Shown piece by piece: positions 4,444-22,053 of a DNA stretch of 32,000 nt. The DNA is from Candidatus Heimdallarchaeota archaeon. Its GTDB lineage: Archaea; Asgardarchaeota; Heimdallarchaeia; Heimdallarchaeales; Kariarchaeaceae. The translations under genes were made by a program, and so were the position numbers. The DNA lies in the NCBI GenBank assembly GCA_030149205.1, contig JASBSB010000003.1:390001-422000 (forward strand). The letters are read 5' to 3'. The notes below the pieces were generated by a model. That model was not told the origin of the DNA. It searched no databases and saw only the letters and a program-made list of their open reading frames with translations. The number at the start of each line of letters is the position of its first letter. Position 1 is the first letter of the stretch.

Positions 4444-4610
4444 TTTGTGCTCAACTAAAAATTAAATTTAATAAAATAATAAATTAGGACTCAATCAAAA
4501 TATAGAGCAAACATCAATTCTTAATGGAAGTTTTTGAGAGAATTTTTTTTCAATGTAATTTCTTCATAGTAATTATCTCAGCCTTTAATTCCATCAAGAA
4601 ATCTGAGTCT

Positions 4611-4641
4611 GTAATCACATCCAGTAATCACATCCAGTAAT
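4611..4641. repeat. 13-bp tandem repeat (GTAATCACATCCA x2 + GTAAT)
   Basis: Read directly: gtaatcacatcca gtaatcacatcca gtaat. Confidence 0.85.
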
Positions 4642-4921
4642 TTTAATCCTTTTACGCAAATTGTAACTTATTGTGGAGAGAAATGTTTAGAAATAGACTA
4701 AATGAGCATCAATGTTGTTGGGAAAATTTAAGCTTCAAATTTGGATTAAAGTATTAAGTGTTTATTGCTAAATCTCAAACCTGACAGGGAATTTGACACG
4801 TTTTAGGACAGGTAGAAGGCTAGAGTTTGTTACCTGAAGCCTTCAAAATCAAAGATTAATTTGTGATCAAGATATTCTTTCTTACTATTGGTCTTCAGAT
4901 CTTAATGCTTTAAAATTATTT

Positions 4922-5491
4922 TTAACTGTACGTGAAATAGTCAACTGGAGGATCTCGTTTAAATTTCTCATTATATGCTAACTTTTCGATCGAACGAATA
5001 AAATCAGATTTTGCATCACTGTAATTTTCTCTTGGTATGCTGCTTGCCACAAGTTTAAGCTTTAACTGATAATATTCCTCTCTCGCCTTTGGGTGGGATC
5101 GCAAGTAATCTCTGAATAAAAGATGACGAAAATGAAACTTATGCCCTCTCTCTACCATATGAAGGTGCTCAATCGAAATATTCTCGTGGTCATTATTCAG
5201 ATGACGAACAAAATACCGACGAAAGGGTAAAATTATATTCCATTTCTCGACGTAACGGTAACCTGCCTTCTGAAGTAGTGGAATAAACTCAGATTCCTCT
5301 GCAAGAGAATGTAATTCAACTCCTATATCAATAATAGGTTTAGCACCTAGTCCAGGAACAGAGGTGCCCCCAACATGTTCTACACTGTAAATATAATGAC
5401 CAATAGTTTTCAAAAGAATGTTTCTTCCTTCTTCAAATTTGGAAGGCCAACTTTCATCATAGTCTACCAAATACAACTTATCACGAAACAC
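4922..5491 (-). CDS. GrpB/UPF0157 family nucleotidyltransferase-fold protein
   Basis: LVDYDESWPSKFEE, EHVGGTSVPGLGAKPIIDI, HLHM, FRDYLRSHP, Y..AKSDFI family motifs. Confidence 0.92.
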   Translation of the reverse strand: MFRDKLYLVDYDESWPSKFEEGRNILLKTIGHYIYSVEHVGGTSVPGLGAKPIIDIGVELHSLAEESEFIPLLQKAGYRYVEKWNIILPFRRYFVRHLNNDHENISIEHLHMVERGHKFHFRHLLFRDYLRSHPKAREEYYQLKLKLVASSIPRENYSDAKSDFIRSIEKLAYNEKFKRDPPVDYFTYS

Positions 5492-5756
5492 AATACAGTC
5501 TTAATTTGTAACTATATTAAATACCTTAAAGATGCCCTTTATCTGACTTACCAAATTCTCCTGGTTGTAATTAGTCTCAGAGAATACCTACCTTTCTAAA
5601 GATAAACTTAACTTAAAGTAACCAAATCTAACAGTTTTCAAAACTTCAAGTATTACGTATTTTTTGTTCTTGCCATTTATTTTTAACTTTTCACCATGTT
5701 ATTCAATATTTATCTACAAAGTAATTGTTTTATTCTTTCTTATTAAATTCAGAACA

Positions 5757-7568
5757 TTGAACATTACAGAATCATCAGATTCAATTGCACACTCTTACAC
5801 AAGAAAACCCTATTACAGAAATGGGACTACCTTATTTCTGTCATTCTTTAAAAGACAACCCGGAAAATTGAGTCTAGCTATTTTTGCATTTGCACTCACC
5901 TCAATTTCTGCTTTAATACCAGCTATACTTGTAGGAATGGCAATTGACGAGCTCACCAATTTCGGTTTTGACTCAACTGTTTGGCTTTACTCAGGTCTAA
6001 TTGTCTTATCAGGTGTTTTTTATTATGTTGTGTCATACTTCTCACTGTATACTTATATAACACTGGCCTTCAGCTATGAGAGAGATATCCGACAGGAGTA
6101 CTTTGACAGAATACAACAGCATAGCTTAACCTTCCATGATGAAAATAACTCCTCTAAGTTGCTCTCATTGGGAGTCACAGAGATAACTCAAATGAGACAA
6201 GGAATAATGCCTGGGACGAGATTCATTATCCAAAATATATTTTCAATAATCTTTATCACTTATTCAATTTACAGGGTAACTGACATTTCCAAACTCTATA
6301 TCACCTTTGGGGGATTTGCATTGTATTACATTGTAGCAATTTACCAATCTAAGAAGATCATACCAGTAAGAACTCAACTCGCAAACACTGTAGGGGAGTT
6401 AACGGAGGAATCGCAGGAGATATTCAAAGGAATCGAGGTTGTCAGATCCTTAGGGTCAAGACTGCGAGAAATCCAAAGATTTAGAACCACAAGTAAAAGG
6501 TACTCAAAGCTAGGAATACAAGAGGGACAAATGGCATCATTCTACTGGCCTGATCTCATTTTGCTATCATTGACAGCCGTGTTATTCTGGCTAACCCTTC
6601 TCGATGTCACAAACAAAGTTATTTCTGTCGGAGATATGGTTCAGGTGCTCGGTCTGTTGTTAACCCTTCAGTTATCTAGTTCTTTTATGCCTCAGATATT
6701 TTTGTCCATTAATGCGGCTCTTACAAACTCAAACAGAATATGGAAAAAAATGAACTGGCAGGATCCACAACCTGACAAGATGATCACTAAAGATTTAGAG
6801 GTCAACTGGGATGGAGACCTGAAATTTGAGGATGTGACATTTACTTACACTCAGTCAGAAAGACCTGCCTTAGAAGAAATAAATATTTCAATACCCCCTC
6901 ATAGCAAAGTGGCTTTGATCGGAGGTCCTGGATCAGGGAAGTCAACATTTCTAAAACTGCTCTTACAGCTGTACCTACCTCAGAAGGGAAGAATCACGAT
7001 CTCTGGAGTTGATTTTCAAGACATCAAAGTGGATGAGGTAAGAAGAAACGTTAGTAGGGTTGAACAGGAAGTATTTCTCTTTTCAGGGACAATTCGAGAT
7101 AATATTGCATTCGCAAAACCTGATGCATCTGACGAGGATGTCATTGCTGCTGCTCAGGCTGCTCAAGCGCTTGAATTTATCAAGCAGCTTCCTGATGGAA
7201 TCTATACCAAGATTGGTGAAAGAGGTGTTGATATCTCAGGGGGTCAAAAACAAAGGTTAGCTATTGCAAGAGCGATACTTGCAGACCCCAAGATTCTATT
7301 GCTAGATGACAGTGCATCTGCCTTAGACAGTAAAACTGAGGAGCTGTTAAGAATCGCCCTAGATAACCTTTCAAAGGACAGAACCACTATTACAGTGACC
7401 CAACGATTAAACACTTTGGTTAGAGCAGATCTCATAATCTTATTGAAAAAGGGAAAAGTTCTCGCCTCAGGCACACATAAAGAACTGTTAAAGGACTGTG
7501 AAGAATATCAGAACATTTTCAAGTTGCTACCGGAATCTGAACAGTTACTAGCTCAGGAGGGAGATTAA
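5757..7568 (+). CDS. Heterodimeric ABC exporter, subunit A (TMD+NBD)
   Basis: TM domain then Walker A GGPGSGKS, signature ISGGQKQR, degenerate Walker B (LLLDDS) and Q in place of the H-loop His (VTQR), typical of the degenerate half of a heterodimer. The start is uncertain: TTG 5757 preferred, the track gives 5664. Confidence 0.93.
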   Translation: MNITESSDSIAHSYTRKPYYRNGTTLFLSFFKRQPGKLSLAIFAFALTSISALIPAILVGMAIDELTNFGFDSTVWLYSGLIVLSGVFYYVVSYFSLYTYITLAFSYERDIRQEYFDRIQQHSLTFHDENNSSKLLSLGVTEITQMRQGIMPGTRFIIQNIFSIIFITYSIYRVTDISKLYITFGGFALYYIVAIYQSKKIIPVRTQLANTVGELTEESQEIFKGIEVVRSLGSRLREIQRFRTTSKRYSKLGIQEGQMASFYWPDLILLSLTAVLFWLTLLDVTNKVISVGDMVQVLGLLLTLQLSSSFMPQIFLSINAALTNSNRIWKKMNWQDPQPDKMITKDLEVNWDGDLKFEDVTFTYTQSERPALEEINISIPPHSKVALIGGPGSGKSTFLKLLLQLYLPQKGRITISGVDFQDIKVDEVRRNVSRVEQEVFLFSGTIRDNIAFAKPDASDEDVIAAAQAAQALEFIKQLPDGIYTKIGERGVDISGGQKQRLAIARAILADPKILLLDDSASALDSKTEELLRIALDNLSKDRTTITVTQRLNTLVRADLIILLKKGKVLASGTHKELLKDCEEYQNIFKLLPESEQLLAQEGD

Positions 7569-14716: not shown

Positions 14717-16237
14717 TCACGAAACAAAATTATCTAAGTCCTTAGAGAGCTGTTTGAGTGAAGGAAGATGCATATACATCATATGTCCTGCCTCATAGAA
14801 CCTCATTGTGATATTCTTTCTCAGACTCTCATCAAGCTTCATATGATTAAACGTGTAGTTGGTTGCAAAGTATGGAGTCGCCATATCATAGTACCCAGAT
14901 CCCACAAAAACGCGAAGGTTCTGATTCTTACTCATTGAGTCCCTCAATGTCTCAGCAACATCTACAAACTGATTATTATGCTCATTAAACTTCCATGTCT
15001 GATAAAGTGAAGCAAGTATCTTATAGTCAAGATCCGACTCAAATCCAAGCTCCTCTCGGATGTAATCATTGAATGTTGCAGTGTATGCTCCCTGAATTAC
15101 TGGATAGCTTGGATCATAGCTGTACATATCATCAACGCCATCTCTGTCTATACCTTTAAACCTGCTGTCTAACCTACCTACCGTCCTGTTCTCATCTCTG
15201 AGAAGCTCTTTTGCAAATCTGTGGATATCAATTCGAAGGTGCGTTCTACTTAGGTAGGTCTTAGAAAGACTGGTAAATCTGTTTAGCTTTTCAAGTACAC
15301 TTTCCTTTAGCTCATTATCAATATCATCTCCATCAAATAGGGCACCAAGATACTCGTTTCTGCAAAACTCCTCGACCTCTTTTAAGAGTCCACTTAAACT
15401 CTCCGATTTTACCTTGCCGTGATATCGAGCAGTTGCTGCATATGTTGGGAGATATAAAAGGTGAGGCTCATCATTCCCAGTTCCAAATCTGATGGTCTGA
15501 AAGTTGAGTACTGAAGAAATGAGCATGATACCATTGAGATAAAAACCTAGGTTGTTCTGAAGGTATCCAGACAATCCAGCAGCTCTGGTTGTTCCATAGC
15601 TCTCTCCTATTAGATATTTGGGAGATTTCCATCTAGAGTTTCGAGAGGTGTACAACCTGATAAAATCACCCACAGATTCTAGGTCTTTTTTGAACTGATG
15701 AAATTCTGTTGGGTCTTCACCCTCAACAGATCGACTGAATCCTGTGCTTACTGGATCTATGAAGACCAGATCCGATGACTTTAAAAGTGAATACTCATTG
15801 TCTACCAACCGGTATGGGGGTTTTGCGGGTTGTTCATCCTCCTCAGCTATGACTCGCTTCGGCCCCAACAACCCTAAATGCAACCACACAGATGATGAAC
15901 CTGGTCCACCATTGAATGAGAACGTGAGAGGACGTTTTGAGTAATCTTCTGTACCGAGCTTAGTGTACGCTATGTAGAAGATCCTCGCTTTTGGTTTAAC
16001 CTCTTCCTTGTTGTCTTCCTCTCGAAGCACTGCGTAGCCAGTTTCAGTCCTGTATCTGAGTTCTTTGCCATTGAGTGTGATAGAATGCTCTCGGATGACA
16101 ACCTCATCTTTAACCTCTGGTTTTGAATCCTTTCCATTGGCATCGCTTTTGGAATTTCCTGTAGAATCTTCCTTGAAATTATCCTTGGAGCTGTCTTTGG
16201 AATTTTTTTGTGTATTATTCTTAGAATTCTCTGACAT
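14717..16237 (-). CDS. Serine carboxypeptidase, peptidase S10 family (bacterial-type)
   Basis: FNGGPGSSS, nucleophile GESYG, YYDMATP (Asp), EAGHMMY (His). Charged N-terminal extension and no signal peptide. Confidence 0.95.
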   Translation of the reverse strand: MSENSKNNTQKNSKDSSKDNFKEDSTGNSKSDANGKDSKPEVKDEVVIREHSITLNGKELRYRTETGYAVLREEDNKEEVKPKARIFYIAYTKLGTEDYSKRPLTFSFNGGPGSSSVWLHLGLLGPKRVIAEEDEQPAKPPYRLVDNEYSLLKSSDLVFIDPVSTGFSRSVEGEDPTEFHQFKKDLESVGDFIRLYTSRNSRWKSPKYLIGESYGTTRAAGLSGYLQNNLGFYLNGIMLISSVLNFQTIRFGTGNDEPHLLYLPTYAATARYHGKVKSESLSGLLKEVEEFCRNEYLGALFDGDDIDNELKESVLEKLNRFTSLSKTYLSRTHLRIDIHRFAKELLRDENRTVGRLDSRFKGIDRDGVDDMYSYDPSYPVIQGAYTATFNDYIREELGFESDLDYKILASLYQTWKFNEHNNQFVDVAETLRDSMSKNQNLRVFVGSGYYDMATPYFATNYTFNHMKLDESLRKNITMRFYEAGHMMYMHLPSLKQLSKDLDNFVS

Positions 16238-17527: not shown

Positions 17528-18889
17528 TTATTTTGGTAAAAATAGGGTTAGATCACCAAATTCATGCCAAGTATAACCTAGACTCATTGCTTTATTGTAG
17601 GCTTTCAAAAGATTATCCTTATCTTGAGAAAATCCTGCAATAAGTGAGAAGTGTGAGCTATTTGGTAAATGCATCCCTGTAAGAAGTGCATCGCAGAGAT
17701 AAAATGATGAATTTTCTTGAAATTTAATTCTGGTAGTACCAAAAACACCATTTGAATCTATTTGAATGCCTTGGAGTTTAGAATCTGTTAATTTAACCCT
17801 AACCTGGGTTGAACTAGATGAACCATCAACCTGTTCCAAAAAATCAGATAGCAAAATTATGATGTCATCTTTTCTCATTGGTTCATCAACGTTATTTTCA
17901 GCTCTTTTTAGCAGAAGTTCTTTAAATAAAGATTCTAAGGCTCTTAAAACAGTAGTTCCAACTGCAACTACTTTACCACCTCTTCTTTTGGTTTCAAGGA
18001 TATTTTTGATTGTGCTGAATGAGATAAAATATTTTTCGGGTAATGGGAAAAAGGCATCCAGCTCCTCAGATCCAGTACTTGAAAGACCAGCAGAATGAAG
18101 TAAGGACACGACAGAAATATTCCTATCTTTGAGTCTCTTAACAAGATTCCAAGATAACTGCAAGGCAGCGGAAGGTGGTTCAACAGAGATAGGGATTGTT
18201 GAGAAGATTGTTTGGTGATCCCAGAGGGAAAGCTCCTCTTCTATGTATGAATACCTTATCAATTTCCCAGACCTGTATATTTCTCCAAGAACCTCATCAG
18301 CAGTAATAGGTTGAGAACTCCATTTACCATTTTTTAACACCTTTACAAATTCCACCGTTATGAATCGTTTAAAGGTATCATGTATTTCTAAGACCTTAAG
18401 TCCAACAGTGGAGCTGAGCAGAACGATATCTGATTCCTTCAGGTCGGAGGGTTCCTCTCGTTCCTCAGTTGGTAGTTCTAGGGATTTGGATGACGTATTT
18501 TCGTTTCCTGTTTGCTTAAAGATTATGGCTTTCCATCTCTTAAAACTCCTTAATTTCTGATCAATATTAGCTGCCAATCGTATCTCAACTGCCTCTAGTG
18601 TTCTTGAGTTTCTTCCAATGAGAGATGCTGGAAGGGTTGCACTCTCGTTAACGATTACGAGGTCATTTGAAGACAATATTTCTGGAAGATGAAACAGCTT
18701 TCTGAAGCTTTGTCCCTCAGATTTGAAGACCATTAGATTTGTGTTCTCATCCCTGATTCTACTTTTGTGTGCAATTGGAACCTCATCGCTAATTAATAGT
18801 TTTTGGGTATTCAATTGCGTTTGCTTAGGCTTGTCTTTCTTACCGAGATTTACCTTGGGGTGACCGTTAATCAAAGAAAACTCCTCCAT
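17528..18889 (-). CDS. QueA-like protein (S-adenosylmethionine:tRNA ribosyltransferase-isomerase fold, divergent paralog)
   Basis: LVIVNESATLPASL, SVEPPSAA, VAVGTTVLRALES, LLTGMHLP, WHEFGD. These match the QueA fold but differ from canonical NDT.VIPARL, APTAGLHF, TNFHLP and FFSYGD. Overlaps the SDR stop by 19 nt. Confidence 0.85.
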   Translation of the reverse strand: MEEFSLINGHPKVNLGKKDKPKQTQLNTQKLLISDEVPIAHKSRIRDENTNLMVFKSEGQSFRKLFHLPEILSSNDLVIVNESATLPASLIGRNSRTLEAVEIRLAANIDQKLRSFKRWKAIIFKQTGNENTSSKSLELPTEEREEPSDLKESDIVLLSSTVGLKVLEIHDTFKRFITVEFVKVLKNGKWSSQPITADEVLGEIYRSGKLIRYSYIEEELSLWDHQTIFSTIPISVEPPSAALQLSWNLVKRLKDRNISVVSLLHSAGLSSTGSEELDAFFPLPEKYFISFSTIKNILETKRRGGKVVAVGTTVLRALESLFKELLLKRAENNVDEPMRKDDIIILLSDFLEQVDGSSSSTQVRVKLTDSKLQGIQIDSNGVFGTTRIKFQENSSFYLCDALLTGMHLPNSSHFSLIAGFSQDKDNLLKAYNKAMSLGYTWHEFGDLTLFLPK

Positions 18890-19677
18890 TCATCAGATGC
18901 GTATCGTACCTTTCGACTTCCAGTTAAATAGTTTGATTGGTTTGGTTCATCGGATTTAGAATTTACCTGATTATCTGAATCATCTGATTTTCTTGCTGAT
19001 TTCGAGATTAATGTTTCAATGAACTGAATTAAATCTACTGCCACATCTTTTGGATCATAAAGCTCATCTCTGTTTGCATCTGGAATTGCATCGAAATGCA
19101 TTGGTGTTGCCATGTCTCCTGGATCCAGTGAAACAAACCTCACCTCTGTATCTTTTAGTTCCTCACTCCAGATTCTGGTTAATTGATCCAATGCTGCTTT
19201 TGAGACACTGTATGAACCCCAGTTTGGATAAGCCTGCACAGCAGCATCTGAAGATATATTGATCACCAAACCCGAATTCTGTAAAATTAGCTTTGACATC
19301 AACGCTTTGGTAAGTCTAAAGGGTCCAAGCAAATTCGTTTGAAGTACCTGTTCTAAATCCTCACACTCAGTGTCATTCAGACTCTTAAGAGGGGTAATCC
19401 CAAGATATGAGGCATTATTGATCAAGACATCCACCCCACCAAGTGTCCCAAATATCAATCCAGAAAGCCTGTAAATTAAGTCTTTATCAGAGATGTCACC
19501 TTTCACGATTATGACTGTAGGAATCTCAGTTTTTAATTTATCCAGTTTTACTTGATCCCTTGCCACAGTTAATATATTTGCCCCCTTGTTGATCAGTTGC
19601 ATCACAAGCTCTTTTCCCAAACCAGATGTCCCTCCAGTTATCACCACATTTTTGTTTTTCCAATATGTATCTGTCAT
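18871..19677 (-). CDS. Short-chain dehydrogenase/reductase (classical SDR)
   Basis: ITGGTSGLG, NNAS, catalytic S and YSVSK, LDPGDMATPM. Confidence 0.95.
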   Translation of the reverse strand: MTDTYWKNKNVVITGGTSGLGKELVMQLINKGANILTVARDQVKLDKLKTEIPTVIIVKGDISDKDLIYRLSGLIFGTLGGVDVLINNASYLGITPLKSLNDTECEDLEQVLQTNLLGPFRLTKALMSKLILQNSGLVINISSDAAVQAYPNWGSYSVSKAALDQLTRIWSEELKDTEVRFVSLDPGDMATPMHFDAIPDANRDELYDPKDVAVDLIQFIETLISKSARKSDDSDNQVNSKSDEPNQSNYLTGSRKVRYASDEWRSFL

Positions 19678-19738
19678 ATGTGTTCTGAGTAATATTATAG
19701 AGATGAGATAAAATATACCTATTGGTTTATAAAATCTA

Positions 19739-19775
19739 TAAAATTTCTGAGGGTTGATTTTTTTCAGAAATTTTA
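19739..19775. promoter_or_regulatory. Perfect 12-bp inverted repeat, candidate operator in the divergent promoter
   Basis: TAAAATTTCTGA (19739-19750), 13-nt spacer, TCAGAAATTTTA (19764-19775). The operator role is inferred. Confidence 0.6.
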
Positions 19776-19832
19776 ATTGGTTTTCATCTCAGGAATCAAA
19801 ATTTTCTTAAGGTTGCAGTACTAATTTTCTTT

Positions 19833-20627
19833 GTGAGTCATAAGGAAATCGAGTCAATTCAGATTGATGAGTACTCTCCCGATATTTCTCAGTATAGTAA
19901 AACCAAGAGAGACCTACTACTGCTTTTGAAGAGAGAGGGTAACCTGACTTTGACAGAGCTTGCATCAAGACTTAATCTAAGTAAGATGGGGGTAAGTAAA
20001 CAGTTGGGCCAGCTTGAATCAATAGGGGTTGTAGAACGTACTTACCTTAAGAGAGGTAGGGGGAGACCAGCAGTAAGTTTCCAGTTAGGAGAATCATCCA
20101 AAAACATATTCCCAAGAGCGTATGCTTCATTAACCATCTCCACACTAAAGTTCATCAAGAGTAAACTCGGTATTGGTGCAATTAGAGAGCTGTTGCAGGA
20201 GAGAAAAGTAGAGGTTCTCTCAGGTTACAAAAATGAACTGGAAGATAGCTTAAAAAGTGATTCTGGAGAGAAGCCAACCCAATTTTTGCAGAAGAAGAAA
20301 ATTAAAAATTCAAAATCACAAGAAGATTATTTATCACAGAGTGAATTATCTACTAATGATAAAAGTGACACTTCATTCCTTACTAAAAAAGTATCATGGT
20401 TAGCCCAAAAAAGGGATCAGGAAGGATACATGGTGGAGCTTAAGGTCATTAACAGTGATAAATTTGAGATGTTGGAATTTAACTGCCCAATCTTTGATGT
20501 GGCAAATGAATACTGGGATGCCTGTGTTAAGGAGCAAGAGCTCTTTGAAGACTTGCTTGGTGTTCCTGTAAAAACCACTCACAGGGTTGTAGCTGGGAAT
20601 AATGTCTGTAGATTTTTGATTGGATAA
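19833..20627 (+). CDS. ArsR/SufR-like winged-helix transcriptional regulator with C-terminal three-Cys (putative Fe-S) domain
   Basis: N-terminal HTH (LTELASRLNLSKMGVSKQLGQLE), GRGRP wing, C-terminal NCP-x12-C-xxE...C pattern. Confidence 0.85.
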   Translation: MSHKEIESIQIDEYSPDISQYSKTKRDLLLLLKREGNLTLTELASRLNLSKMGVSKQLGQLESIGVVERTYLKRGRGRPAVSFQLGESSKNIFPRAYASLTISTLKFIKSKLGIGAIRELLQERKVEVLSGYKNELEDSLKSDSGEKPTQFLQKKKIKNSKSQEDYLSQSELSTNDKSDTSFLTKKVSWLAQKRDQEGYMVELKVINSDKFEMLEFNCPIFDVANEYWDACVKEQELFEDLLGVPVKTTHRVVAGNNVCRFLIG

Positions 20628-20766: not shown

Positions 20767-22053
20767 GTGGGTATTGAAACTAGGACATCTGGATCAAATG
20801 GTTTGATTCAAAGGTCTAAACGTTCAGCATGGATTTATTATGTATTTCAAATGATGCTCAGTTTCTCACAGAACCTTGCATATCAATACATTCCTTTGTA
20901 CAATCAGAAACTAGGTGCAGATGAGGTGGAGATGGGATTGATGACAGCAGTTCAAAATGTGTTTTCGACAGGCTTAAGTCCCATTTGGGGAAAAATTTCT
21001 GATCAGAAAGGTCGTCGATTATTCTTGTTGATTGGCTCATTTACTGCAACTGTTAGTGCCTTTACACTTGTGTTTGCAAGAAATCCGAATGATGTGTTGA
21101 TCTCTATCGCCATTAATTCCATTGGTTTATCCATGTTAATTCCAGCTTGGCAAGGTGCGATAGCAGATTATACTGAGGGTCAGGATAGGGGGAGTTTTAT
21201 TGGAAAGATAGTTGGTTCTTCTTATGCCTATGTGACACTTGCCTTGATCCTTTATTCCTTTTTTGCGCCATCTTTACCTATCACAGAGATAGAACAGTAT
21301 CGAATTCTAATGATAGTTTCAGCAAGCAATTTTGGGATAATGATCTTTCTGTCTTGGTTGGTGCTTGATGTAAGAAAGAATGGGGAAACTAGAAAGCAGT
21401 ATAGTCTATTTGAACCTTTTAAGGATAAGACCTACAGGAGATTCCTTATTGTAATACTCTTTTGGTGGTTTTGGATGAGTTTAGCATGGAGTTACTTTCC
21501 AACAGTAATAGCAGGTGTAATCAACGCCTCGGTGTCTGAGGTTGCATGGATGGCAATAGCAGGTACAGTCGTACAGGCAATTTCTTCATACAAGATGGGA
21601 TCATTGATCCAGAGGATAGGAGAAAGAAAATCTATAATCCTGGGTTTTCTTACCTTTACAATTGTTCCAATAAATTTTGCTTTTGCAACCGAGTGGTGGC
21701 ATCTTTTACCTGCACAGATAATTTCAGGAATTGGGATTGGCTTTGGATTTACCGCGCTTCAGACATATATTCTAAATATAGCAGGGTCTGAAAAGGCTGG
21801 GAACTATCAGGGGACGTACAATCTTCTTTGGGGAATAGTAACATTTGTGGGCTCATACTTTGGTGGTTGGATGCTGTTATGGTTAAAAGATACTGTGGGA
21901 ACTCTTCCATTGGCATTGACATATGCATTGTTGATAGTTGCAATGTTGCGATTCTTTTCGAATTTCATCATGATCTTCTTTCTACCAGACTCTAATGCGA
22001 ACAAAACTCAACCTCCAGAATTATACCCATCTGTGTATCCCCTTGATGAATAA
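20767..22053 (+). CDS. Major facilitator superfamily transporter
   Basis: About 12 TM segments; motif A GKISDQKGRR and its repeat GSLIQRIGERK. Confidence 0.93.
   Translation: MGIETRTSGSNGLIQRSKRSAWIYYVFQMMLSFSQNLAYQYIPLYNQKLGADEVEMGLMTAVQNVFSTGLSPIWGKISDQKGRRLFLLIGSFTATVSAFTLVFARNPNDVLISIAINSIGLSMLIPAWQGAIADYTEGQDRGSFIGKIVGSSYAYVTLALILYSFFAPSLPITEIEQYRILMIVSASNFGIMIFLSWLVLDVRKNGETRKQYSLFEPFKDKTYRRFLIVILFWWFWMSLAWSYFPTVIAGVINASVSEVAWMAIAGTVVQAISSYKMGSLIQRIGERKSIILGFLTFTIVPINFAFATEWWHLLPAQIISGIGIGFGFTALQTYILNIAGSEKAGNYQGTYNLLWGIVTFVGSYFGGWMLLWLKDTVGTLPLALTYALLIVAMLRFFSNFIMIFFLPDSNANKTQPPELYPSVYPLDE

Follow-up and report, generated by a model that had tools for sequence, protein, structure and literature searches.

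The genes described here lie at 17528-20627 of a 32,000-nucleotide stretch of Heimdallarchaeota DNA (hereafter the window), which sits on contig C7 of a 3.3-Mb genome that is assembled in 12 contigs and 93.5% complete. They encode a QueA-family protein, a short-chain dehydrogenase/reductase (SDR) that precedes it on the same strand, and a SufR-like regulator transcribed divergently from this pair (Table 1). A preliminary description, made from the sequence, had drawn three open reading frames (ORFs) at this place, and all three were found intact where it had put them. The motifs NESATLPA, EPPSA, TGMH and WHEFGD, which it had given for the QueA-like protein, are all present in the translation, and its remark that no tgt or que gene lies within the window proved correct. 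An archaeal host, as it had likewise supposed, agrees with the nearest QueA-like homologues, which carry the names Heimdallarchaeota and Hodarchaeales. The GC content is level across the locus, and a convergent GT2 gene bounds the two-gene operon on the side opposite to the regulator.

How far the QueA-like and SDR genes overlap depends on the start codon. The 19-nt overlap described previously holds if translation starts at ATG 18889, but not if the TTG at 18874 is used, which has a GGAGG 8 nt upstream and leaves a TTGA stop-start overlap of 4 nt with the SDR gene. An ATGA overlap between the two genes is the usual form in bacterial homologues, and the TTG start would give the window the same type of coupling.

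Table 1. Features of the SDR/QueA-like locus and of the transporter gene that follows the regulator.
Feature	Position	Strand	Remarks
QueA-family protein, SDR-linked non-canonical subfamily	17528..18889	-	453 aa from ATG 18889, 448 aa from TTG 18874; PF02547 149.5 bits
Classical SDR, apparently of the NADP(H) type; 5’ gene of the two-gene operon; predicted to form a complex with the QueA-like protein	18871..19677	-	268 aa; adh_short 151.4 bits
A/T-rich divergent promoter region, 155 bp	19678..19832		contains an inverted repeat, the candidate operator
SufR-like (COG2345-type) winged helix-turn-helix (wHTH) regulator, probably with a [4Fe-4S] site	19833..20627	+	264 aa; wHTH families in Pfam
Major facilitator superfamily (MFS) transporter, drug/H+ antiporter type	20767..22053	+	MFS_1 128.9 bits; weak Tet/EmrB-type matches

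The QueA-like protein and the 7-deazaguanine genes of its hosts

No enzyme other than QueA is known to use S-adenosylmethionine (SAM) as a ribosyl donor, and the QueA family has been treated as a bacterial tRNA enzyme with a single function (PMC1282579). The match of the window protein to the family profile PF02547 (Queuosine_synth) extends over residues 39-449. With the QueA equivalog models NF001140 and TIGR00113, whose cut-offs are 324 and 267.45, it reaches 119.2 and 81.9 bits, respectively. In a tree that combined 88 SDR-linked sequences with seven canonical QueAs from the same bacterial genomes (a quick IQ-TREE search, with support from the Shimodaira-Hasegawa-like approximate likelihood ratio test, SH-aLRT), the seven canonical proteins form one side of a branch with a support of 100, and no SDR-linked sequence lies among them. 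The window protein, which falls outside that clade, clusters with four sequences of its own archaeal family (support 91), and this archaeal group is in turn joined to two bacterial sequences (support 99). Because of its low equivalog scores, its place outside the canonical clade, and the eleven switched positions on its catalytic face that are listed below, the protein is not a QueA. As such, the preliminary description was right to call it a non-canonical member of the family rather than a queuosine enzyme, and the clustering with canonical QueA that would have counted against this view did not occur. Its label of ‘paralog’ has to be dropped, since the host genome lacks a canonical QueA, the gene studied here being its single PF02547 gene; the term xenolog is the fitting one. 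No paper on the SDR-linked subfamily was found in our literature searches, whose coverage did not extend to subscription journals.

Comparing the 88 SDR-linked and the seven canonical sequences column by column shows which residues the two branches have in common, and which separate them. Common to both are N81, E285, G311-T312-T313, R316, E319, D400, H407, P409, G445 and D446; with QueA (EC 2.4.99.17; structures 1VKY, 1YY3 and 1WDI), the protein shares the two-domain fold and the patterns GTT-x2-R-x2-E, H-x-P and G-D. In contrast, eleven positions are fixed differently between the branches: T85, Y213, E237, S240, S270, G405, S412, H413, L417, H442 and E443. At the level of motifs, the SDR-linked type has EPPSA where canonical QueA has AAPTAG, HE[YF]GD instead of FFS[YF]GD, G-x-H-x-P-x2-SH instead of N-F-H-L-P-x-STL, and QY-x-Y instead of PLPPY. 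All 33 of the 33 alignment columns that are invariant in the subfamily are kept in the window protein, which carries the subfamily motifs NxSxTxPxS, W-x2-Q, EPPSA, G-x-H-x-P-x2-SH and HE[YF]GD, and matches none of the canonical motifs PLPPYI, AAPTAGLHF, NFHLPxSTL and FFSYGD. Isoelectric points showed no useful difference between canonical and SDR-linked proteins.

An AlphaFold2 (AF2) model of the QueA-like protein, built from a 29-sequence alignment, reached a predicted local distance difference test score (pLDDT) of 85.7 and retains the beta-barrel insertion domain. A Foldseek search with this model returned the QueA structures 1vky, 1yy3 and 1wdi only, with E-values of 1e-16 to 1e-20 at 18-20% identity. 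Most of the conserved and switched residues are situated at the C-terminal strand ends of the alpha/beta domain in the model, the face on which an unresolved ligand was located in 1VKY (PMC1282579). This arrangement would be consistent with a cofactor site that was retained, next to an acceptor site that was re-tooled.

What the acceptor could be is constrained by the genes for queuosine (Q) and archaeosine in the hosts. The preliminary description, which pointed out that archaea classically use archaeosine in place of Q34, had raised the question whether the genome holds a bacterial-type tgt. It holds none: the sole TGT-family gene, on contig C8, reaches 430 bits with TIGR00432 (cut-off 350) versus 87 bits with the model for Q-type Tgt, which makes it the archaeosine enzyme TgtA. 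A QueC gene is present on contig C4, and QueF had no match in the window genome at its completeness of 93.5%. With TgtA and QueC in the absence of QueF, preQ0 and archaeosine are therefore expected, and preQ1 and Q34 are not. The picture in actinomycetes is similar. In four genomes of 3.6-9.1 Mb that carry the SDR/QueA-like pair, a TGT-family gene was found in none of the four tested, while each has one PF02547 gene, of the SDR-linked type; in five actinomycete genomes with the pair, neither QueF nor a real QueC was found. Five Q-proficient bacteria, on the other hand, have a canonical QueA (347-478 bits) alongside the SDR-linked type (125-294 bits). In Neobacillus niacini (L074, L076), the pair and canonical queA have the same orientation, with the pair some 5 kb upstream. 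A single TGT is present in the Nitrososphaera host, in an open frame of 511 aa, for which length alone suggests the archaeal type. The SDR-linked type thus differs from QueA not only in sequence but also in being paired with an SDR and in occurring in hosts without TGT, QueF or QueC. Since hosts of the pair lack a bacterial TGT and QueF, as seen in an archaeon with TgtA only and in actinomycetes without TGT, QueC or QueF, the acceptor of the SDR-linked QueA-like proteins is almost certainly not preQ1-tRNA.

The dehydrogenase partner and the spread of the pair

Pairs of an SDR and a QueA-like gene, which the preliminary description mentioned for bacteria, are indeed found there, and very commonly. 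Scanning species-representative genomes yielded 84 loci besides that of the window, and an SDR gene is located directly upstream of the QueA-like gene and on the same strand in 79. The same arrangement was seen in a Heimdall LC-type contig and in the bacterial contigs that were looked up. Three of the five loci without an upstream SDR end at contig edges, and another consists of a single frame, in which a response-regulator receiver, an SDR and a QueA-like domain follow each other over 814 aa (L091:3576-6020, from a Solirubrobacterales metagenome-assembled genome). Either the fusion is natural, or an indel error in a long-read assembly created the frame. No fused SDR-QueA form was found among proteins of 794-2265 aa, which is weak evidence, as an SDR-QueA fusion would measure some 600 aa and belong to the size range of the first search, with its at least 120 matches.

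The SDRs themselves are orthologous, the window SDR being 33-58% identical to those upstream of the QueA-like gene in 31 other loci, and identity to it tracks the clades of the QueA-like proteins. Common to these loci are TGxxxGxG, R40, S143, Y156-x3-K160 and an unusual DPGDMxTxMH motif. The window SDR has T14-G15-x3-G19-x-G21, N87-N88-A89, and the catalytic S143 and Y156-x3-K160, while its R40, which follows strand 2, suggests NADP(H) as the cofactor.

Structure prediction supports the notion that the two proteins bind each other. The predicted complex of the SDR and the QueA-like protein received a score of 0.73, versus 0.00 for the best of three controls; 58 of 80 solved complexes attain this mark, as do 2 of 110 mismatched pairs, counts that are only rough since custom alignments were used. 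Contact agreement between the runs was at least 98%, and partner pLDDT at least 85. In the predicted interface, residues 82-84, 197-206 and 222-233 of the QueA-like protein, which lie beside conserved motifs, meet residues 69-81 and 127-132 of the SDR. Foldseek found no solved QueA-SDR complex, so there was none for the model to remember.

Hosts of the other loci belong to the Myxococcota, Acidobacteriota, Pseudomonadota, Bacillota, Actinomycetota, Cyanobacteriota, Chloroflexota, Planctomycetota, Gemmatimonadota, Verrucomicrobiota, Deinococcota, Melainabacteria and Nitrososphaerota. Among the Asgard archaea, the family profile detected a QueA-family gene in six of 301 sampled genomes, all six in one taxonomic family. 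Two further Asgard copies are broken remnants, namely L115 (G003:C212, locus positions 5629-6063) and L013/L122 (G009:C323), which are shortened or interrupted by stop codons; the remnant in G003 has no adjoining SDR gene. The cassette is being lost in part of this Asgard family. Considering that the distribution is restricted to a single family, and that the archaeal group lies within a group with bacteria that has a support of 99, the Asgard copies probably go back to one acquisition from bacteria that was followed by losses. The copy in Nitrososphaera groups with those of the Pyrinomonadaceae and carries a SufR-like gene along, and thus represents a separate transfer.

Directly 3’ of the pair, nine Bacillota loci have a gene for a protein with a VOC/glyoxalase fold (121 aa in Neobacillus niacini). 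VOC-fold enzymes include epoxide-opening enzymes, and the chemistry of QueA ends in an epoxide; as a hint to the chemistry of the pair, we take this neighbour as a lead only.

The regulator and its candidate operator

The preliminary description had classified the divergent gene as a three-Cys regulator of the ArsR/SufR type, and this classification gained in detail. Residues 22-70 match the wHTH families HTH_24, MarR and HTH_20, and the three cysteines, C218, C231 and C259 (C-x12-C-x27-C), are accompanied by every other SufR cluster ligand and by a GRP AT-hook. In SufR of Mycobacterium tuberculosis, a GRP AT-hook and the [4Fe-4S] ligands C179, C192, E195 and C220 were described from cryo-electron microscopy (preprint, bioRxiv 10.64898/2025.12.26.696629). 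C218, C231, E234 and C259 of the window regulator map onto these four ligands, and G77-R78-P79 maps onto 75-GRP-78. All of these residues are invariant in the seven pair-linked regulators, which come from the window genome, Nitrososphaera, four Acidobacteriota and one Chloroflexota. The linker of the window regulator bears a species-specific low-complexity insertion of about 40 aa. As cautioned in the same preprint, ligand conservation alone does not prove cluster binding (bioRxiv 10.64898/2025.12.26.696629), and we consider a [4Fe-4S] cluster in the regulator probable.

Compared with the SufR/COG2345 proteins of M. tuberculosis (Rv1460), Synechocystis and Streptomyces, the window regulator has in common the N-terminal wHTH and the AT-hook, the spacing of its three cysteines with a Glu three residues past the second, and an A/T-flanked palindrome in its own promoter. 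It differs in scoring below the cut-off of the SufR model TIGR02702 (79.9 versus 178.8 bits), in its palindrome, which is not CAAC-N6-GTTG, and in its linkage to an SDR/QueA-like pair, here and at six other loci. Neither is it placed beside suf genes, which are found on another contig: a cluster at C4:238-244 kb, in which sufB, sufS and sufU are transcribed away from sufD and a Rieske gene, has no SufR-like regulator beside it. Apart from the window regulator, no COG2345 gene was found in the genome. Members of COG2345 have been proposed to regulate pathways beyond suf (bioRxiv 10.64898/2025.12.26.696629).

Within the intergenic region, at 19739-19775, lies a perfect inverted repeat of 12 nt, TAAAATTTCTGA-N13-TCAGAAATTTTA, with A/T-rich outer arms, which we propose as a candidate operator. 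A search of the 3.3-Mb genome for its core, TTTCTGA-N(11-15)-TCAGAAA, returned the promoter site and no other. The A/T-rich flanks would fit the AT-hook recognition described for SufR (bioRxiv 10.64898/2025.12.26.696629); the SufR operator CAAC-N6-GTTG itself was not found between 19678 and 19832. A copy of the repeat with two mismatches is located at C4:243476-243508 (L123:5477-5509), at the 3’ end of the Rieske gene of the suf cluster and some 60 nt before an unannotated ORF of 430 aa. Genome-wide, the count of such two-mismatch matches is about that expected by chance.

Which regulator accompanies the pair varies with the host. A regulator of the XRE-cupin type is found divergently upstream of the SDR gene at 28 of the 84 other loci, a true SoxR with the CIGCGCLSxxxC motif is found upstream at eight, and a SufR-like regulator at six (four Acidobacteriota, one Chloroflexota and one Nitrososphaera). 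The linkage of three genes that the preliminary description drew attention to is therefore conserved for the two enzymes, but not for the SufR-like regulator. The recruitment of two unrelated families of Fe-S sensor, SufR-like and SoxR, to the same enzyme pair points to a role in redox stress, and is in our opinion the strongest clue to it. The SufR-like loci of the Pyrinomonadaceae (L027, L034, L057 and L025) have paired intergenic elements, TTTCTAAAG / CTTTACAAAG, and the Nitrososphaera locus (L072) has GTAAAC-N6-GTTTAT before both the regulator and the SDR gene. These palindromes are probably lineage-specific operators; an operator shared between the window and these loci, which have palindromes of their own, was not established.

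The arrangement also resembles the regulons of SoxR outside the enteric bacteria. In Pseudomonas and Streptomyces, SoxR responds to redox-cycling metabolites and controls regulons of oxidoreductases and efflux systems. Similarly, at the window locus a sensor of the Fe-S type is divergent from a small operon of an oxidoreductase and a second enzyme, and an MFS exporter gene lies beside it, whereas the sensor belongs to the unrelated SufR-like family. A QueA-fold protein in a described SoxR regulon was not found in the literature searches, subscription journals again being outside their coverage. The MFS gene starts 139 nt 3’ of the regulator gene, on the same strand. None of the 84 other loci surveyed has an MFS homologue adjoining the pair, and the gene is possibly a member of the regulon that is specific to the window locus.

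Proposed function and alternatives

With moderate confidence, we favor the interpretation that the window carries one instance of a widespread and hitherto undescribed two-enzyme cassette of bacterial origin, in which an SDR and a QueA-fold enzyme form a heteromeric complex that acts on a substrate other than a 7-deazaguanine, and whose expression is derepressed by redox stress. The SDR and the QueA-fold enzyme would be made from one translationally coupled transcript, and the NADP(H)-dependent SDR and its partner would then act as a heteromer on a substrate different from preQ1-tRNA and from all other 7-deazaguanines. Because the residues common to the whole QueA family are retained, binding of SAM and chemistry of the QueA type are probably kept: the QueA-like subunit would bind SAM and release adenine and methionine, while a C5 unit is transferred or cyclised. 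The eleven switched positions, which bring additional Glu, His and Tyr side chains to this catalytic face, would accommodate another nucleophile, most likely a small molecule, and the SDR may reduce or oxidise a carbonyl or hydroxyl group before or after the ribosyl step. On the side of regulation, the [4Fe-4S] form of the regulator would occupy the inverted repeat of the common promoter region and keep the operon repressed. Loss or oxidation of the cluster upon oxidative, nitrosative or iron stress would release it, and perhaps the unit of regulator and MFS gene as well, where the exporter may be an addition to the cassette in the window genome. A ribosyl transfer from SAM coupled to NAD(P)H reduction, as put forward in the preliminary description, is plausible as a hypothesis, and of the two kinds of substrate that it named, RNA appears less likely than a small molecule.

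A more far-reaching version of this scheme, which we put forward tentatively, holds that the pair is a new SAM enzyme system for Fe-S and redox stress. The ribosyl moiety of SAM would here be turned into a C5 carbocycle or a sugar derivative, free or in conjugated form, to serve as a small-molecule protectant, conjugate or signal rather than as an RNA modification, and gene transfer would have carried the system through about 12 bacterial phyla and into two archaeal lineages, the Heimdall-type Asgard archaea and Nitrososphaera.

Several observations weigh against the interpretation we favor. Regarding the enzymes, the case for SAM binding is built on conserved residues, and we know of no QueA-SAM complex that has been solved; likewise, the score of the predicted complex expresses the confidence of a model and is not a measurement. 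The window QueA-like protein sits on a long branch (1.29), has about 100 extra residues, and is only 30-39% identical even to copies from the same genus. As remnants in two related genomes show, the gene is dispensable, and it could be subject to drift at the window locus. Regarding control, a SufR-like regulator and an MFS gene are both absent beside the pair at two loci of the Heimdall family, L113 (genome G002, same genus) and L015 (on an LC-type contig), and in G001 and G005 the contigs do not reach far enough for the regulator flank to be read. The argument for regulation at the window locus is made from adjacency, the inverted repeat, and an analogy with six bacterial or thaumarchaeal loci, and the regulator, as a single-copy COG2345 protein, could act in trans as a general regulator of suf. 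At L113, the gene divergent from the SDR gene encodes an unannotated 353-aa protein and is followed by a gene for a small cupin (the two at 4565-4936 and 4933-5994), where the window has the SufR-like regulator.

Two alternatives retain a novel reaction, and to both we assign the same low probability. If the acceptor were RNA, a SAM-derived carbocycle would be placed on some other amine-bearing nucleoside of tRNA or rRNA under stress, after which the SDR would finish the group. The QueA family is known solely as a tRNA enzyme, and both the beta-barrel insertion domain and the residues common to QueA are kept, which is what an RNA substrate would lead one to expect. However, the distribution is patchy and that of an accessory gene (6/301 Asgard genomes, with remnants in sister genomes), control is by sensors of stress or small molecules, and there is no obvious amine-bearing nucleoside that the hosts have in common, several being without any 7-deazaguanine genes. 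Furthermore, the predicted docking of the SDR beside N81 and the Q226-T227 motifs would leave less room for a tRNA, as far as the complex model allows such a deduction. The other alternative, equally unlikely in our estimate, does away with SAM: the QueA fold would isomerise, or open a ring of, a nucleoside-like or epoxide-bearing metabolite, in a detoxification shared with the SDR. The switched residues E237, H413, H442, E443 and Y213 could form a metal or acid-base site that QueA does not have, and both the VOC/glyoxalase-fold gene 3’ of the pair in the nine Bacillota loci and the control by SoxR-type sensors of redox-cycling compounds would suit such a role. Against it stands that the residues conserved in both branches are retained, most simply as a retained cofactor site, and that no data suggest an alternative ligand.

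The two remaining explanations deny the window genes a novel role. That the cassette in the window is a decaying relic of little or no function, with a regulator that controls itself, the MFS gene or suf genes, strikes us as improbable. The long branch and lineage-specific insertions, the broken copies in G003 and G009, a regulator and MFS gene that are not linked to the pair at L113 and L015, and the two-mismatch copy of the inverted repeat inside the suf cluster could all be read in favor of it. Both ORFs are intact, however, with 33/33 subfamily-invariant residues and the catalytic residues of the SDR kept, and the QueA-like fold is confidently predicted. Moreover, similar insertions in all three proteins and in neighbouring genes make these a trait of the genome rather than a mark of decay, and the match in the suf cluster is at chance level. 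Least credible of all, to the point of being nearly negligible, is true QueA activity, with epoxyqueuosine formed on tRNA from salvaged preQ1, which the Pfam Queuosine_synth match and the public annotation of homologues as S-adenosylmethionine:tRNA ribosyltransferase-isomerase would imply. This reading was rejected, being contradicted by a genome without a bacterial-type TGT or QueF, by scores below the equivalog cut-offs, and by a position outside the canonical clade; in addition, the SDR-linked type is found beside a real QueA in bacteria that are Q-proficient, and is present in genomes without TGT.

The finding of a second large branch of the QueA family, locked to a dehydrogenase, independent of queuosine, and accompanied by three different families of stress sensor, points to an unrecognised reaction of SAM and to an unrecognised arm of the redox-stress response. 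It also reveals a systematic misannotation, as public records label the SDR-linked proteins as tRNA ribosyltransferase-isomerases, and it corrects any inference of queuosine synthesis in the Asgard lineage of the window. For the newly defined SufR-like (COG2345) family, the operon would provide a concrete target other than suf. A PADLOC search gave no defence-family match for either enzyme, and for the regulator generic wHTH matches only.

All three proteins contain hydrophilic insertions of low complexity, in which K, S, N, E and D are abundant and which are species-specific, being missing from orthologues even in related genomes. They occupy residues 1-32 and about 325-385 of the QueA-like protein, about 224-255 of the SDR and about 141-198 of the regulator, and look like a proteome-wide habit of the host genome. 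A similar low-complexity tract is found at the N-terminus of a nearby 506-aa protein, encoded at 14717-16237 on the minus strand, that matches serine carboxypeptidase S10 (PF00450, 68.9 bits). The S10 family is mostly eukaryotic, and its occurrence in an Asgard genome is possibly of interest in itself.

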